From a virus (lineage: Duplodnaviria > Heunggongvirae > Uroviricota > Caudoviricetes), in the IMG/VR virus record IMGVR_UViG_2851976983_000003: 45,144 nucleotides of DNA, one strand, 5' to 3'. The notes below the pieces were generated by a model. It was given only the letters and a program-made list of their open reading frames with translations, was not told the DNA's origin and ran no database searches. Shown one piece after another: positions 1-39,595 of this stretch. Position 1 is the first letter of the stretch. Each line of letters opens with the position of its first letter. Made by a program: the position numbers and the translations under genes.

Positions 1-267
1 TTACTCTGCAGGTGAAGTCGGCCACTCAATATCAGGTGCGGTTGATGTATCAACACGGTTCAGCAACACCCGATACTTCTTCCAGGCTTCCAGCAACGAG
101 TTTTCTTCCTCCGTTGCGATCTCCAGATCTACAGCATCCTGAAGTGGCGCAATATGCTCACTGAATTCCTGGATGTAGAACTGTGTGGTGACGGTCTTCC
201 AGCCATTCGGCTCCTGCTGTATCGAAGCATACCAGGCTATTTCAATATCGCTATGCTGCGGCAGCAT
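1..267 (-). CDS. Tail fibre assembly (Tfa)-like protein, C-terminal-domain fragment; lacks the conserved Tfa N-terminus
   Basis: C-terminal ~40 aa ([29 protein letters not shown]) align with the C-termini of the full-length Tfa copies at 2519-3049 and 3078-3611; the upstream part is replaced by AT-rich DNA. Confidence 0.5.
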
Positions 268-3077: not shown

Positions 3078-3611
3078 TCATTCAGGTTGTTCGGGAAATG
3101 TTACTGGCAGGCTGGAGGTGTCTGTAGATTCGACTTTCTGCGCATAGAGCATCCACTCGGTTAATTTTTGTTTATTCTCGTCGGAAATGATGCCCAGCCG
3201 TAGCTGTGAGTCCCATAGCTGGGTTTTATCCCTGACAAGTTGCAACAGGCTTTGCTTTTCATTCTCTGCCTGCTGCCTCTGTTCCTCTTCGGTATAAGTT
3301 CGCTTTATCACTACGCCATCTTTGAACATCCATTTACCCGAAATATCAGCCCGGCGATTTGCTGTAATATCAGGTAATTCAACGACGCTTGCGCCTTCCG
3401 GATTAATTGCTGAAACATCCTTTTCAATACAAATAATAACGCCGTTATGGTCATAGACCATTTTCAAAGTGTCTGGCCGGAAATTCTTTTGTTCCTCATA
3501 CCAGTTTTTTCCATCATCTGAATAAAGCCATCTGATGTTAAATTGCTTTGTTAGCTGGTATTGCTCTTTTGTTTTAGGATTGCCAGCAGTAATGTTTTTT
3601 AAGTGCATCAT
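3078..3611 (-). CDS. tfa: Tail fibre assembly protein Tfa
   Basis: 177 aa, [24 protein letters not shown]…; directly downstream of the stf C-terminal segment. Confidence 0.85.
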   Translation of the reverse strand: MMHLKNITAGNPKTKEQYQLTKQFNIRWLYSDDGKNWYEEQKNFRPDTLKMVYDHNGVIICIEKDVSAINPEGASVVELPDITANRRADISGKWMFKDGVVIKRTYTEEEQRQQAENEKQSLLQLVRDKTQLWDSQLRLGIISDENKQKLTEWMLYAQKVESTDTSSLPVTFPEQPE

Positions 3612-3613
3612 AA

Positions 3614-7891
<4,278 letters not shown>

Positions 7892-28604: not shown

Positions 28605-28632
28605 ACATGAAAAAGGCCGCAGAGCGGCCTTT
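28605..28632 (-). terminator. Rho-independent terminator downstream of the 71-aa ORF
   Basis: ggccgc-aga-gcggcc stem followed on the minus strand by a T-rich run. Confidence 0.55.
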
Positions 28633-30140: not shown

Positions 30141-30522
30141 TGCCGCCACCTCCGCCCCGCAGGCGGGAGAACACACCGGACACCAGCGATGCAATATCCT
30201 GCTGGTGGATGAACGACAGAACCTTCACCGACACCACCGATACCAGCACCGCACACAGCGCATCTGCCGATGTACCGTCATACCCTGTTTTTGATGCAAT
30301 CCAGGCTGACAGCACACGCGCTCCCAGCACGCCGACAATAAACGACACCAGAAAATGCGCCACCACACGCCAGACTGAAAGCGCCTGCGGCATCGTTGCC
30401 ACAAATAACGCCCCGGCGAACGCACCAAACACAATCCCGAAATCCGTTCCGGTAAACAGCCCGTACACCGTCGCCCCACCGAGCGCCGCAGCCGTGCCGG
30501 AACCGGATAAGGGTTCAGACAT
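30130..30522 (-). CDS. Putative holin (multi-TM, Gly/Ala-rich)
   Basis: Start placed at MSEPLSGSGTAAALGG…; several hydrophobic segments; first gene of the lysis cassette. Confidence 0.5.
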   Translation of the reverse strand: MSEPLSGSGTAAALGGATVYGLFTGTDFGIVFGAFAGALFVATMPQALSVWRVVAHFLVSFIVGVLGARVLSAWIASKTGYDGTSADALCAVLVSVVSVKVLSFIHQQDIASLVSGVFSRLRGGGGGNVK

Positions 30523-30539
30523 ACGTTTTTCTCCTGTAA

Positions 30540-30565
30540 ATAAAAAAGGGCCGCCAGCGGCCCGT
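30540..30565 (-). terminator. Rho-independent terminator immediately upstream of the lysis cassette
   Basis: gggccgc-ca-gcggccc hairpin followed on the minus strand by TTTTTTATTT. Confidence 0.6.
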
Positions 30566-30689
30566 AAAAACACCCCGTCAAAGGCACCCGCAGATGCCTT
30601 TTGCGCGGCGTTATTTGATGTGATATGCGCCGGGTGTGGCGAGGATATGAAAAAGGCCCGCCGTAGCGAGCCATGAAAAAAAAATGAAT

Positions 30690-30718
30690 AAAAAAAACCG
30701 CCTGGTGCGGCGGTTAAG
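30690..30718 (-). terminator. Second rho-independent terminator between the tRNA array and the holin
   Basis: aaccgcc-tggtgc-ggcggtt hairpin followed on the minus strand by a long T run. Confidence 0.55.
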
Positions 30719-30990
30719 GATGTATTTCCAGGTTTTGCTTAGTACGCGATTAATCTCAACGTTATTCTGAGCGATGCTTACAACATCGGAATGATGCATC
30801 ACCGACCCTGCCAGGAAATACAAAATCTCCACCGATAATGCACCATTCTGCTGTCGTAAAAAAATCAGCACTGAGGCTACACCTGGCCTCAAATTATAGC
30901 CAGAGAACAGAATGCTTTTTCAAAACAACCTGCTCCCACGTAATAAAAAATACACCAGTGCCGCAATACAATAAGGCTTGTTGCAAATGC

Positions 30991-31065
<75 letters not shown>

Positions 31066-31068
31066 ATA

Positions 31069-31144
<76 letters not shown>

Positions 31145-31146
31145 AC

Positions 31147-31223
31147 TGGACCGCCACCGGGGACTCGAACCTCGCACACTCAACTTAAAGGGTTGACGCT
31201 CTTTCCTGATGAACTGGTGACAG
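31147..31223 (-). tRNA. tRNA-like gene, atypical (anticodon loop CCUUUAA, nominal anticodon UUU; possibly degenerate)
   Basis: 77-nt foldable cloverleaf with encoded CCA, but two G-U pairs in the acceptor stem, C at position 8, C at position 33 and an A-C mismatch in the T stem. Confidence 0.45.
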
Positions 31224-31224
31224 T

Positions 31225-31300
31225 TGGTGGCCCTTGCTGGATTTGAACCAGCGACCTGGCGATTATGAGTCGCTCGCTCTCACCACTGAGCTAAAGGGCC
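31225..31300 (-). tRNA. tRNA-Ile2/Met-type (anticodon CAU; ileZ/ileX-like)
   Basis: 76-nt cloverleaf, acceptor ggccctt/aagggcc, anticodon loop ctcataa, T-loop ttcaaat, CCA. Confidence 0.8.
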
Positions 31301-32966: not shown

Positions 32967-33710
32967 CTAATCTGACGTCACACGCACCATTATACTTACT
33001 AAAGAAAAGTCATCATCAGGTCCGGCTCTCTCTATACGACGCAAAATGCCATTAGAAAACTTCTGACTATTACTCATCGTATTTGATGTAAATCTGGGGC
33101 GTTTTTCCCAAACGTTATGAACCCCATCAGACATGATACACAGATGATATACCCCGTTAATACTAGGTAAATCTTTCCATGTGATAAAATCACAGTCGTA
33201 TTCCATATCAACATTTGAGGCTATAGCCGTCGTTAAGATATTTTTGCCCGGTTTATCCTTCAAATCTCTGGGTTTAAAAATATTCTGATCAATTAGCATC
33301 TGATGCCTGGTATCGTCCTTCGTCAATTGGTATGCTTTCTTCTCTCCAATGCAATACAAACGACAATCACCAATATGACCAATAATAATTCCGCTATCAC
33401 AAACATAACAAAACGTAAGTGTAGTAGCAGCTTTATCGAACTCATCATTAACATCAGCTAACGACATAACCTTTCGCTTAACTTCATCAAATACATCCGG
33501 AACTGTGTCAAAAGATAAGCTTGTCAATGCTGAAAGTTCAGCAATTGCCATTGATGAAGCCTGACTGGCACCAGTGTATGAACCTACACCATCAGCTACG
33601 GCAAATAAGATGCCATCCCCTACAATTTTGGGAGGAAGCAATGAATCTTCGTTGACCCTACCTGGTTCTTTTGGATACGAGAATGATGAAGTCGCTATCA
33701 GCTGAATCAT
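32967..33710 (-). CDS. PP2C-family Ser/Thr protein phosphatase
   Basis: 247 aa; PP2C motifs AVADGVGS, GDCRLY, SDGV and a C-terminal acidic DDD cluster; start ATG overlaps the kinase stop (ATGA). Confidence 0.8.
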   Translation of the reverse strand: MIQLIATSSFSYPKEPGRVNEDSLLPPKIVGDGILFAVADGVGSYTGASQASSMAIAELSALTSLSFDTVPDVFDEVKRKVMSLADVNDEFDKAATTLTFCYVCDSGIIIGHIGDCRLYCIGEKKAYQLTKDDTRHQMLIDQNIFKPRDLKDKPGKNILTTAIASNVDMEYDCDFITWKDLPSINGVYHLCIMSDGVHNVWEKRPRFTSNTMSNSQKFSNGILRRIERAGPDDDFSLVSIMVRVTSD

Positions 33711-34471
33711 GACTCACTCCTTAAAAAAGAATGCACAAAATCAAACGCCACATCATCTATTGTCTGATATCTATCATCTTTATCCATCCTGGTACACTTC
33801 GCTATGATAGGCTTTATTTTTTTATCATCTAAATTTAAGTCCTCAATTAACCGCCCCACCGCATAAACATCAGTCTTAACTGAATACTCGGCATTATATA
33901 AAATCTCGGGAGCCATATATCTTGTACTTCCCATACGGGTACCGATCTCGGTCAATTTAGTGGTATCCCCTTCGGGATTTGTATCTTTTACCAGACCAAA
34001 ATCAGACACCTTGTATGTTCCGTCGCTAAATCGCAAGACATTAAATGGTTTTATATCTCTGTGTAAATAGCCTTTCGCATGGATGTGAGCTACACCATCT
34101 AATACCATTTTCACTATTGAAATTTTTTGATCTGTTGTAAGAAGGTTGTTCGTTATTTCGTGCTCAAGATCACATTCTGCTTTATCCATAATGAACCATG
34201 GATTCTCGGCAAACAAATCGCACAAATAAATAGGAACAATATTGCTATGTACGCAATGTGATTGATACACGACCTCCCTTTTAAAACGCCTTCTAAACTG
34301 CTCTATTTGCGCCAAAAGCTCTGGTTTTTCGGGGGCTAAAACCTTTCTAGCATAATCCCCACATTCACCCTTGTTGAGGTTGTAAACCTTAACGTGTTCA
34401 ACAAAGCCAAATGCACCCCTTCCAATCAACTGAATTCGTTTTATAAAGTAATTACCGTGCTGTTCTTCCAT
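33707..34471 (-). CDS. Hanks-type (eukaryotic-like) Ser/Thr protein kinase
   Basis: Complete catalytic motif set: G-loop GRGAFG, lysine in YARKV, HRDIKPFN catalytic loop, DFG, APE (YMAPE), DVYAVG. Start placed at MEEQHGNYF; the ORF track starts 25 codons upstream. AT-rich. Confidence 0.85.
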   Translation of the reverse strand: MEEQHGNYFIKRIQLIGRGAFGFVEHVKVYNLNKGECGDYARKVLAPEKPELLAQIEQFRRRFKREVVYQSHCVHSNIVPIYLCDLFAENPWFIMDKAECDLEHEITNNLLTTDQKISIVKMVLDGVAHIHAKGYLHRDIKPFNVLRFSDGTYKVSDFGLVKDTNPEGDTTKLTEIGTRMGSTRYMAPEILYNAEYSVKTDVYAVGRLIEDLNLDDKKIKPIIAKCTRMDKDDRYQTIDDVAFDFVHSFLRSES

Positions 34472-34569: not shown

Positions 34570-34615
34570 ACACACTATACGGCAAAATATCACATTTACA
34601 TAAAATGTATGCGAT

Positions 34616-37753: not shown

Positions 37754-38080
37754 ATGACTAAAAATACTCGTTTTTCCCCCGAAGTCCGTCAGCGGGCGAT
37801 TCGTATGGTTCTGGAAAGTCAGGATGAATATGACTCACAGTGGGCGGCAATTTGTTCCATTGCCCCAAAGATTGGCTGTACGCCGGAGACTCTGCGTGTC
37901 TGGGTTCGCCAGCATGAGCGGGATACCGGGGGCGGTGATGGTGGGCTCACCAGCGCTGAACGTCAGCGTCTGAAAGAGCTGGAACGTGAAAATCGTGAAC
38001 TGCGCCGCAGTAACGATATCCTTCGCCAGGCTTCCGCTTATTTTGCGAAGGCGGAGTTCGACCGCCTCTGGAAAAAATGA
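37754..38080 (+). CDS. IS3-family transposase OrfA (HTH/leucine zipper)
   Basis: 108 aa, [50 protein letters not shown]…. Confidence 0.9.
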
Positions 38081-38967
38081 TGCCACTGCTGGATAAGCTG
38101 CGTGAGCAGTACGGGGTCGGACCGGTATGCAGCGAACTGCATATTGCCCCGTCAACGTATTACCATTGTCAGCAACAGCGACATCATCCGGATAAACGCA
38201 GTGCCCGTGCGCAGCACGACGACTGGCTGAAGAGAGAGATACAGCGCGTATACGATGAAAATCATCAGGTGTACGGTGTGCGTAAAGTCTGGCGTCAGTT
38301 GTTACGGGAAGGAATCAGGGTGGCCAGATGTACAGTGGCACGTCTCATGGCGGTTATGGGACTTGCCGGTGTTCTCCGGGGTAAAAAGGTCCGTACGACC
38401 ATCAGCCGGAAAGCCGTTGCCGCAGGCGACCGCGTAAACCGTCAGTTCGTGGCAGAACGACCTGACCAGCTGTGGGTGGCTGATTTTACTTACGTCAGCA
38501 CATGGCAGGGCTTCGTCTATGTGGCGTTTATCATTGATGTGTTTGCCGGATACATCGTGGGGTGGCGGGTCTCATCGTCTATGGAAACGACATTCGTGCT
38601 GGATGCGCTGGAGCAGGCGTTGTGGGCCCGTCGTCCGTCTGGCACCATCCATCACAGCGATAAAGGCTCTCAGTATGTGTCACTGGCCTATACGGAGCGA
38701 CTAAAAGAAGCCGGATTACTGGCATCAACAGGGAGTACAGGCGACTCGTATGACAACGCGATGGCTGAGAGCATCAATGGTCTTTACAAAGCGGAGGTAA
38801 TACACCGTAAGAGCTGGAAAAACCGTGCAGAAGTGGAACTGGCCACACTAACGTGGGTGGACTGGTATAACAATCGACGATTGCTGGGAAGGCTGGGCCA
38901 TACTCCTCCGGCAGAAGCAGAAAAAGCTTATTATGCTTCCATCGGAAACGATGATCTGGCAGCCTGA
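38077..38967 (+). CDS. IS3-family transposase OrfB (DDE integrase core)
   Basis: 296 aa with DDE/rve-type core (…WVADFTYV…HHSDKGSQY…DNAMAES…); overlaps orfA. Confidence 0.9.
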
Positions 38968-39149: not shown

Positions 39150-39305
39150 TTACTCCTCAGGTTCGTAAGCTGTGAAGACAGCGACCTCCGTCTGGCCGGT
39201 TCGGATTCGTACCTCGCAGAGGTCTTTCCTCGTTACCAGTGCCGTCACTATGACGGTTAAACAGATGACGATCAGGGCGATTAACATCGCCTTTTGCTGC
39301 TTCAT
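39150..39305 (-). CDS. hok: Hok/Gef-family type I toxin (HokD-like)
   Basis: 51 aa MKQQKAMLIALIVICLTVIVTALVTRKDLCEVRIRTGQTEVAVFTAYEPEE, a canonical Hok sequence; the in-frame upstream extension in the ORF track (39150-39362) could be a mok-like leader frame. Confidence 0.85.
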   Translation of the reverse strand: MKQQKAMLIALIVICLTVIVTALVTRKDLCEVRIRTGQTEVAVFTAYEPEE

Positions 39306-39595
39306 AGCCTGCTTCTCCTTGCCTTTCGGCACGTAAGAGGCTAACCTAGATTTGCCGTTCATAGATTGAGCCTCAGATTAATGTTAAGCGTCTTGCAGGA
39401 CGCGTAATGTTAACTGGGGCTTTTCTCTATCTGCCTTTGGTGTTCATGCCTGAGACAGATAGCCTCAAGCACCCGCAGCAATTCTACTTAACTCCCCTTT
39501 CACTGCAAACCGTTTTTATCCCCAGCGGCAAATCGAATACACAACAAGTGCTACCGCCATTGCAATTCCTGTCGTTGTGAATGCCTCCGGCCAGG

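Follow-up and report, generated by a model that had tools for sequence, protein, structure and literature searches.

A probable folded trailer RNA and a stack of predicted intrinsic terminators between the tRNA array and the holin gene of a lambdoid prophage of enterotoxigenic Escherichia coli

Introduction

In lambdoid phages, the terminators located downstream of the late promoter PR' are overridden by the antiterminator protein Q (summarised in PMC7547250). This study concerns the interval between the tRNA array and the holin gene in IMG/VR virus record IMGVR_UViG_2851976983_000003, a stretch of 45,144 nt that was analysed as a whole and is referred to as the window. With its late genes on the minus strand, the window is a lambdoid prophage from enterotoxigenic Escherichia coli (ETEC); from 30400 to 31100, which takes in the interval and its flanks, it has 100% identity to E24377A and to several ETEC isolates. 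The spacer that separates tRNA-Gly from the holin gene (30990-30523) is probably the untranslated 3' trailer of the prophage tRNA operon, ending in a terminator stack that shields the lysis and morphogenesis genes.

The closest described late control regions are those of phages 82 and 434. At pR' of phage 82, a near-consensus -10-like pause element with an extended -10 and a GCC discriminator at +15 to +17 is associated with a sigma-70-dependent pause at +25 (PMC5001585). The window has the same late control features: its Q protein shares 68% identity with phage 82 Q over the full length, and a promoter overlapping the end of Q is followed by a pause element, GCC at +15 to +17, and a terminator. 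Unlike the arrangement in phages 82 and 434, this unit (34632-34542) is 3.6 kb upstream of the spacer, with approximately 4 kb, taken up by accessory genes, tRNAs, and trailer, between it and the lysis genes. In phage 434, by contrast, the genes next to the unit are those for a membrane protein and a DUF3927 (TciB) protein.

In Shiga toxin (Stx) phages of the Sp5/933W type, the order is PR', StxS, tR', tRNA promoter, tRNAs, stx, in some cases STnc100/PasD, and the lysis genes, with StxS located between PR' and tR' (PMC7547250). The succession in the window is similar, with antiterminator, PR', terminator, independent tRNA promoter, tRNAs, accessory cassette, terminators or small RNAs (sRNAs), and holin, and in sequence the tRNA promoter differs little from that of an O157 prophage. 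Unlike the Stx phages, which carry Ile-Arg-Arg tRNAs, the window carries Ile2-Thr-Gly tRNAs and is free of toxin genes. Among the matches listed, O157 genomes have the T2 segment of the spacer only, the Domain I/II trailer described below not being detected in them.

Regulatory RNAs, too, have a niche between Q and the lysis genes. PasA, PasC, and PasD adjoin holin-lysozyme operons and Q genes, and STnc100 is found 75 nt behind stx2. The window shares with STnc100/PasD the location between antiterminator and lysis genes and the ending in a hairpin and U tract, but its corresponding segment (module A) is unrelated, shorter, and has no promoter that could be seen, whereas PasD2 has a TTGACT promoter of its own. 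The 3'ETS-leuZ RNA is the 3' external transcribed spacer sRNA of a tRNA operon, and, as in that type, a structured RNA directly follows the last tRNA in the window and is bounded by the intrinsic terminator of the operon. It differs in being much larger (approximately 100-300 nt) and in being phage-borne. Morons, which consist of a promoter, a gene, and a terminator, offer a further parallel in that terminators are at the edges of exchangeable cassettes, such as TerB-DUF3927 in related prophages; in the window, unlike in a moron, there is no cassette and the flanking terminators alone remain, side by side.

Results

Four unidirectional terminators precede the holin gene

The original prediction had placed two rho-independent hairpins on the coding strand between the tRNAs and the first lysis gene. 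Both are present, as T1 (30715-30696) and T4 (30563-30548), and they are two of four same-strand intrinsic terminators, T2 and T3 having been missed (Table 1). Each of T1 to T4 has a G+C-rich stem-loop with a U tract within 0-2 nt on the transcribed strand. Three of them, T1, T2, and T4, were detected by a terminator scan, with stem energies of -11 to -13 kcal/mol; in the T1 tract, two of the eight T are counted within the stem reported by the scan. In T3, an outer stem (CGCC/GGGGUG) encloses GGCAUC-UGCG-GGUGCC, and owing to an internal loop it was missed by the scan and was found by folding, in the window and in most relatives. A fifth terminator-like structure is formed by the closing stem of Domain I (30962-30956 and 30873-30867) followed by seven U (U7; 30864-30858). 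The distance from T4 to the Shine-Dalgarno sequence of the holin gene is 7 nt. One candidate for a holin promoter inside T3/T4, TTGACG at approximately 30579-30574, was rejected, having no -10 partner.

The spacer alone contains 6 terminator-like matches, against 1.0 +/- 1.0 in shuffled sequences, and the 12-kb surroundings contain 25, against 13.4 +/- 4.3. With 13.4 matches per 24 kb of strand taken as the background rate, our own Poisson estimate for one strand of these 176 nt is about 0.1 match, compared with three found by the scan criteria (P approximately 1e-4). All four terminators, which fit into 174 nt, are unidirectional, towards the lysis genes, and on the plus strand there is no T tract behind any of them.

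Comparisons also show that the terminators are kept in related prophages. In 18 of 19 annotated relatives the T1 stem is retained while its loop varies (at least 10 different loops), the exception being one copy in SerU-LTIIb (L002a), in which the 3' arm is mutated. The T4 stem has changed from G-C to G-U pairs in relatives, and T3 is kept with changes in most of them. T4 is present ahead of three lysis cassettes (holin/M15, holin/GH108, and essD/rrrD), and both T1 and T4 are kept across prophages that differ in lysis cassette and antiterminator. Motifs and distances from tRNA-Gly were counted in 120 IMG/VR contigs: T1 was found in 100 (50-200 nt after Domain II), T4 in 81, some of the 120 contigs being truncated, and T2 in 18. 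A T2 homologue is directly 3' of the tRNA array in the O157 prophage L006, and in relatives T2 is upstream of the TerB accessory cassette.

From PR' to the holin gene there are at least seven same-sense terminators (34569-34548, 32563-32546, the Domain I stem with U7, and T1 to T4), and two more (29421-29396 and 28632-28612) are behind the lysis genes. The architecture thus bears out the proposal that lysis and morphogenesis genes lie behind terminators. Because at least seven of these precede the holin gene, the expectation that late-gene expression should need Q-type processive antitermination is well founded.

Two covarying RNA domains follow the last tRNA

Between tRNA-Gly and module A, the spacer folds into two domains. 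Domain I has a 7-bp closing stem (GGCACUG and CAGUGCU, at the positions given above for the fifth terminator-like structure), three internal hairpins, and the U7 tract. Two sequence versions of this domain share one four-way-junction fold, with compensatory changes in all helices. Domain II, a long hairpin, was present in every relative examined, and its minimum free energy is -35.2 kcal/mol on the minus strand (z -5.4), against -18.9 kcal/mol on the plus strand. Based on this strand asymmetry and the many G-U pairs, the structure belongs to an RNA made in the late-gene direction.

RNAalifold recovered the same structure from an alignment of 18 sequences and again from 66 distinct sequences. 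Across both domains in the 18-sequence alignment, 97.6% of cells are paired, compared with 35-50% when the partners are slid by 1-3 columns, and 16 pairs are changed on both sides, compared with 3-6 in the slid controls; the observed values were matched by none of 500 shuffles. Compensatory changes beyond the controls, as expected of a structured RNA, were confirmed on the 66 distinct sequences.

Domain II was found in 385 of 5426 complete E. coli genomes (approximately 7%), at 76-100% identity and in up to 5 copies, and in more than 120 IMG/VR prophage contigs. In 106 of the 120 contigs that were counted, tRNA-Gly(UCC) ends 196-219 nt upstream of the Domain II 3' end. Within the phage collection it is in two records only, SerU-LTIIb and vB_EcoS-683R6. 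When one genome per species was scanned with a 20-nt Domain II core, the only plausible true match was in Escherichia ruysiae, the rest being chance-like matches in unrelated taxa. In SerU-LTIIb (L002), the unit of tRNA-Gly, Domains I and II, terminators, and holin occurs twice in tandem (1201-2424 and 3107-4127), and the two units (holin1a and holin1) bear different Domain I versions.

Neither domain matches any family in Rfam 15, searched at gathering and E-value thresholds with the window and four related loci. Nothing in the spacer is above the Rfam threshold, with weak matches to STnc100, sroB, CyaR, and miRNA-like families only. Likewise, no degenerate tRNA was identified in Domain I by ARAGORN or Rfam, and no T-loop or D-loop signatures were seen. 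The location is that of a 3' external transcribed spacer: Domain I begins 28 nt after tRNA-Gly, and U7 and T1 come next. Domain I is probably the terminator or the 3' trailer of the tRNA operon. As the domains are directly behind the last tRNA and ahead of an sRNA-like module ending in T1, this suggests a stable tRNA-operon trailer RNA, a processing site, or the 5' part of a longer regulatory RNA. For the processing site, it is our own inference that the imperfect helix of approximately 30 bp could be an RNase III-type substrate. It is tentatively proposed that Domains I and II are an undescribed RNA family, tied to tRNA-Gly(UCC) of Escherichia lambdoid prophages and with a function of its own, possibly that of a stable sRNA-sponge trailer.

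The predicted late promoter is beside Q and not in the spacer

The original prediction had also raised the possibility that the true late promoter and qut site are in the interval ahead of the holin gene, instead of, or in addition to, beside the Q-like gene. This is not supported. At the end of Q (34632-34542) there is a promoter, a pause element, a GCC discriminator, and a terminator, as in phage 82, the pause element giving the site its qut-like character. Alignment shows this block to be conserved in prophages L019 and L029 and in phage 434, whose Q gene is Q82-like; the authors of the phage 434 sequence annotate the matching hairpin as a terminator. With this complete set of 82-type PR', pause element, and terminator located at the Q end and shared with phage 434, the late promoter is placed beside Q and outside the spacer, the activity of PR' itself being predicted from its sequence.

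The TATAAT hexamer that had drawn attention to the spacer does exist on the minus strand, 7 nt away from the location first given for it (30886-30891), at 30898-30893. There are 7 copies of TATAAT in the window, against 12.6 +/- 3.2 expected, which is no excess over chance. Its nearest -35 sequence is TTGAAA (30923-30918), at a spacing of 19 nt, and a promoter scan at 16-18 nt spacing identified no promoter-like sites in the spacer. TATAAT is found in 3 of 66 distinct sequences of relatives. Nearly all relatives with the same Domain I version have variants at this site (TATGAT, TGTGAT, TATGTT, TATGGT, and TATTAT), and in the other Domain I version there is no such hexamer there. The hexamer is within Domain I, in the 5' arm of its third hairpin. 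TATAAT is therefore a nonconserved G-to-A variant inside a structural helix, in which a G-U pair has become A-U and pairing is kept, and is not a late promoter.

Downstream of 30893 in the spacer there is no pause-inducing -10-like repeat with TGn and GCC, and no conserved promoter was seen ahead of Domain II or module A, either in alignments inspected by eye or by the scan. Of the features of a phage-82-type PR', the spacer (30990-30523) has no promoter at 16-18 nt spacing, no pause repeat, and neither adjacency to nor co-variation with Q, from which it is 3.6 kb distant.

The suggestion of a qut site in the spacer fails on a further point. Each Q protein acts specifically at its own qut site. 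The same spacer modules recur behind three unrelated antiterminator families, the Q82 type (the window, L019, and L029), DUF1133 (L003 and L004), and a small Q family (L022), and the version of the spacer sequence is independent of the antiterminator type. As a Q-specific qut should track the antiterminator type and the spacer version does not, a qut site in the spacer is unlikely.

The spacer is a mosaic of exchangeable modules

From 5' to 3', the spacer is a mosaic of Domain I, Domain II, module A, T1, T2, segment F, and the block of T3, T4, and ribosome-binding site, and the terminators map to module edges. In many relatives, the place of module A is taken by an STnc100/PasD-like module B of approximately 150 nt that ends in the same T1. 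Compared with the STnc100 model (RF02076), module B (L017, 1587-1781) scores 27.3 bits (E 4.5e-4), where the gathering score is 47 bits, and shares GGUGAA..CC..GCGG and CGGGAGGCACCCG with STnc100; a module in L023 (1284-1473) scores 24 bits and is likewise STnc100/PasD-like and sub-threshold. This suggests that module B, and module B only, may be distantly related to STnc100. The match starts inside the Domain II 3' arm, which hints at a 5' end made by processing.

The window itself gives no such match. The RF02076 test on 30643-30758 returned 17.3 bits (E 0.29), under the 47-bit gathering score, and BLAST found no similarity between the window spacer and PasD2, PasA, and their flanks from the PP2 locus of enteropathogenic E. 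coli (EPEC) E2348/69. By this absence of similarity, identity of the window spacer with these Pas sRNAs was rejected.

In L005, L020, L021, L024, and L026, a TerB + DUF3927 cassette is inserted at spacer positions 370-376, between T2 and T3. In L004, from avian pathogenic E. coli (APEC) O1, at approximately 1880-2130, and in the first copy in L002, there is an insert of approximately 240 nt between T1 and segment F. It has two hairpins, each followed by GGGACAA(A/C)GTCC, and is absent from the window.

In RefSeq, a hypothetical protein of 86 aa (WP_000904532.1; 30871-30611) is annotated over the spacer in E24377A and related genomes, and the open frame is present. Its frame nonetheless crosses Domain II, T1, and T2, so that poly-T tracts are read as runs of phenylalanine. 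Substitutions are even across codon positions (70/85/68), frameshifting length differences are seen in 11 of 17 relatives, stop codons occur in many, and the part of the frame in module A is swapped for unrelated sequence in many relatives. The annotation is almost certainly spurious and the spacer non-coding; there is next to no chance that the protein is real.

tRNA array and prophage setting

Table 1. Features of the window from Q to the lysis genes, in minus-strand reading order. Coordinates run in the direction of transcription.
Feature	Coordinates	Strand	Details
DUF968 gene, RusA	5' of Q	minus	In minus-strand reading order
Q	35305-34616	minus	Pfam PF06323
82-type PR', qut-like pause element, and first terminator	34632-34542	minus	Overlaps 3' end of Q
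PR'	-35 TTGCAA 34632-34627; -10 TACATT 34609-34604	minus	17-nt spacer; predicted +1 at 34597
Extended -10-like pause element	34592-34584	minus	TGATATTTT
GCC discriminator	34583-34581	minus	+15 to +17; A/T-rich stretch next
PR' terminator hairpin	34569-34548	minus	AAACCCGC...GCGGGUUU; U tract to 34542; at approximately +29
Ser/Thr kinase, PP2C phosphatase, 65-aa ORF (open reading frame), N6/N4 DNA methylase	Between Q and tRNAs	minus	
Candidate sigma-70 promoter of tRNA array	31338-31310	minus	TTGCAG 31338-31333, 17-nt spacer, TATTAT 31315-31310
tRNA-Ile2/Met(CAU)	31300-31225	minus	ARAGORN; Rfam; RefSeq E24377A
Degenerate tRNA-like remnant	31224-31145	minus	80 nt, between tRNA-Ile2 and tRNA-Thr
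tRNA-Thr(UGU)	31144-31069	minus	ARAGORN; Rfam; RefSeq E24377A
tRNA-Gly(UCC)	31065-30991	minus	ARAGORN; Rfam; RefSeq E24377A
Spacer, tRNA-Gly to holin	30990-30523	minus	468 nt
Domain I	30962-30858	minus	Four-way-junction RNA; minimum free energy -37.3 kcal/mol, z -4.2
Domain II	30860-30777	minus	Long hairpin with asymmetric internal loop; 84 nt; UGGCAGGG
Module A	30776-30716	minus	A/U-rich, weakly structured, Domain II to T1
T1	30715-30688	minus	AACCGCCGCACCAGGCGGTT at 30715-30696; 7-bp stem AACCGCC/GGCGGUU, then eight T
T2	30672-30650	minus	GGCTCGCTACGGCGGGCC at 30672-30655; GGCUCGC-UACG-GCGGGCC, then U5
Segment F	30652-30621	minus	Short universal segment
TerB + DUF3927 cassette (moron) junction	30621-30615	minus	Pairwise mapping; window cassette-free
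T3/T4/ribosome-binding-site block	30615-30523	minus	Precedes three different lysis cassettes
T3	30610-30566	minus	Extended hairpin 30610-30571, -23.8 kcal/mol, then U5
T4	30563-30542	minus	GGGCCGCTGGCGGCCC at 30563-30548; GGGCCGC-UGGC-GGCCC, then U6
Holin (Phage_holin_8)	ATG 30522	minus	Shine-Dalgarno AGGAG 30535-30531
Second holin, M15 endolysin, Rz-like genes, then small and large terminase subunits	After first holin	minus	

The -10 of the tRNA promoter candidate is 9 nt from the first tRNA. Its TATTAT, with a -35 of TTGCAA, TTGCGG, or TTGATT, is kept, with the distance unchanged, in L017, L019, L029, and the O157 locus L006. In an Stx2a phage, a primary transcription start driving the tRNAs has been mapped between tR' and the tRNAs (PMC7547250). 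Based on the sequence of its candidate promoter, the tRNA array of the window is likewise predicted to be transcribed independently.

The gene at 31225-31300 is reported by ARAGORN as tRNA-Met(CAT), and the identical E24377A gene is tRNA-Ile in RefSeq; presumably its product is tRNA-Ile2 with a lysidine modification, of the ileX/ileZ type that is usual in lambdoid prophages. The remnant at 31145-31224 has an acceptor-like pairing (ACCGCCA/UGGCGGU) and a T-arm-like GGTTCGAGTCCCC, and its sole match is to tRNA-Sec at 15.6 bits. A similar remnant is found in the same place in the O157 prophage L006 (2322-2407).

In L019 and L029, the order is the Q-PR' block, approximately 200 nt, the tRNA array, the same spacer, and holin. 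Based on this order, the 2.9-kb kinase, phosphatase, and methylase block of the window is an insertion into a conserved layout of Q, PR', tRNAs, spacer, and lysis genes. The eukaryote-like Ser/Thr kinase and the PP2C phosphatase are encoded by overlapping genes (32967-34471, minus strand) directly downstream of PR'/tR'; the 65-aa ORF and the DNA methylase come after this pair, and the whole block is missing from L019 and L029.

Elsewhere in the window, Rfam matches at the gathering threshold are to IS009 RNA, the ALIL pseudoknot, and sok antitoxin RNA, at 41-244 (minus strand), 38035-38151 (plus strand), and 39300-39474 (minus strand). The ALIL pseudoknot is a frameshift element of IS3-family insertion sequences, and sok is part of the hok/sok type I toxin-antitoxin system. 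The sequence that separates the small terminase gene from the lysis region includes a perfect 9-bp hairpin, AAAGGCCGC-NNN-GCGGCCTTT (28612-28632), which is terminator-like on both strands.

Discussion

The arrangement is an ordinary lambda-type design. In the lysogen, RNA polymerase that starts at the tRNA promoter, or further upstream at promoters of the kinase, phosphatase, and methylase genes, would cross the tRNAs and be stopped stepwise at the Domain I stem with U7, T1, T2, T3, and T4. The tRNA promoter, being Q-independent, would fire towards the holin gene from approximately 780 nt upstream in the lysogen, and because it points at this gene the terminators would be needed. The late genes would stay off until RNA polymerase, paused at PR'/qut (34632-34581), is modified by the phage-82-type Q; the modified polymerase would then pass every terminator, including those at 34569-34548, 32563-32546, 29421-29396, and 28632-28612. 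T1 would close the unit of tRNA-Gly, Domain I, Domain II, and the sRNA-like module; T2 would be the terminator that trails tRNA arrays in other prophages; and T3 and T4 would trail the TerB-DUF3927 cassette in prophages that carry it. This modular assembly accounts for the number of terminators.

Several points weigh against an insulating trailer as the full account. It depends on tRNA promoter activity, termination efficiency, and Q-dependent read-through, all of which we infer from the observed sequences, folds, conservation, covariation, and mosaic boundaries. Having several branches, Domain I with U7 would be unusual for a terminator and may fail to terminate. Insulation needs fewer than four to five terminators, and some of them may be hitch-hikers of module exchange or may form sRNA 3' ends. 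Insulation also does not explain why Domain II is so strongly conserved (76-100% identity in E. coli genomes, with compensatory changes), and the prophage may be defective.

The most serious competitor, which may be true but is less probable than insulation, and is compatible with it, takes a regulatory RNA to be the main product of the spacer. Here Domains I and II would be a stable trailer fragment, module A and T1 would be an Hfq-type sRNA freed when the base of Domain II is processed, RNase III or RNase E being possible enzymes, and the terminators would mainly be sRNA 3' ends. The covariation-backed folds, the strand asymmetry of Domain II, and the linkage to tRNA-Gly in 106/120 contigs all agree with this, as do the sRNA-like end at T1 (hairpin and U8, with A/U-rich sequence upstream), the weak matches to sRNA families, the STnc100/PasD-like module that has the same place and the same T1 end in relatives, and the richness of the Q-to-lysis interval in sRNAs (StxS, PasA/C/D, and STnc100). 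It is weakened by the lack of a promoter for Domain II or module A, of any window match at the Rfam threshold, and of BLAST similarity to PasD2/PasA; in addition, efficient termination at Domain I and U7 would limit the downstream part to lytic growth. It is rather improbable that the stack is a set of neutral scars of mosaic recombination, with a terminator brought in by every module exchanged (tRNA array, sRNA module, TerB cassette, and lysis cassette), and that it has no selected function. The terminators are at mosaic boundaries, the place of the absent TerB cassette falls precisely between T2 and T3, and T2 is in 18/120 contigs only, but T1 (100/120) and T4 (81/120, some contigs being truncated) are kept whatever the neighbouring modules, stems are retained while loops vary, and all of the terminators face the lysis genes.

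Two further explanations would place antitermination in the spacer itself. A true or second late promoter and qut around TATAAT, at which Q would act with the hairpins as tR' terminators, is very unlikely. The hexamer is perfect, with TTGAAA 19 nt upstream and terminators 180-350 nt downstream, and in related prophages an STnc100/PasD-like sRNA, of a family found near Q genes, follows Domain II. Against this, the complete 82-type PR' with pause element and terminator is at Q and kept in phage 434, the 16-18 nt spacing is absent, as is a TGn/GCC -10-like repeat downstream, and the spacer version is independent of the antiterminator family; the single TATAAT, within chance expectation, is in 3/66 sequences, missing from the second Domain I version, and inside a covariation-kept helix. 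Put RNA consists of two adjacent stem-loops of approximately 30-35 nt each, just downstream of a promoter. As a conserved structured RNA directly upstream of the terminator stack in the same transcript, Domain II might be imagined as a cis-acting antiterminator of the HK022 put type, passing polymerase from the tRNA promoter through T1 to T4 under some condition. The consensus fold, however, is a single 84-nt hairpin, constitutive read-through into the holin gene would be lethal, and a Q with its own qut site is present, leaving this reading slightly less credible still than a spacer promoter.

With the untranslated, terminator-ended trailer of the tRNA operon as the preferred reading, the annotation of this interval is corrected: the RefSeq hypothetical protein is dropped, the late promoter is placed to the base next to Q, and the lysis cassette is seen to be behind a conserved multi-terminator barrier. 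Such a barrier would explain how a constitutively transcribed tRNA array and accessory genes can be carried right upstream of the holin gene without killing the host. The folded trailer RNA is the only item that goes beyond textbook knowledge, and is a modest one; it adds a candidate to the regulatory RNAs of the Q-to-lysis interval, alongside StxS, PasA/C/D, and STnc100.

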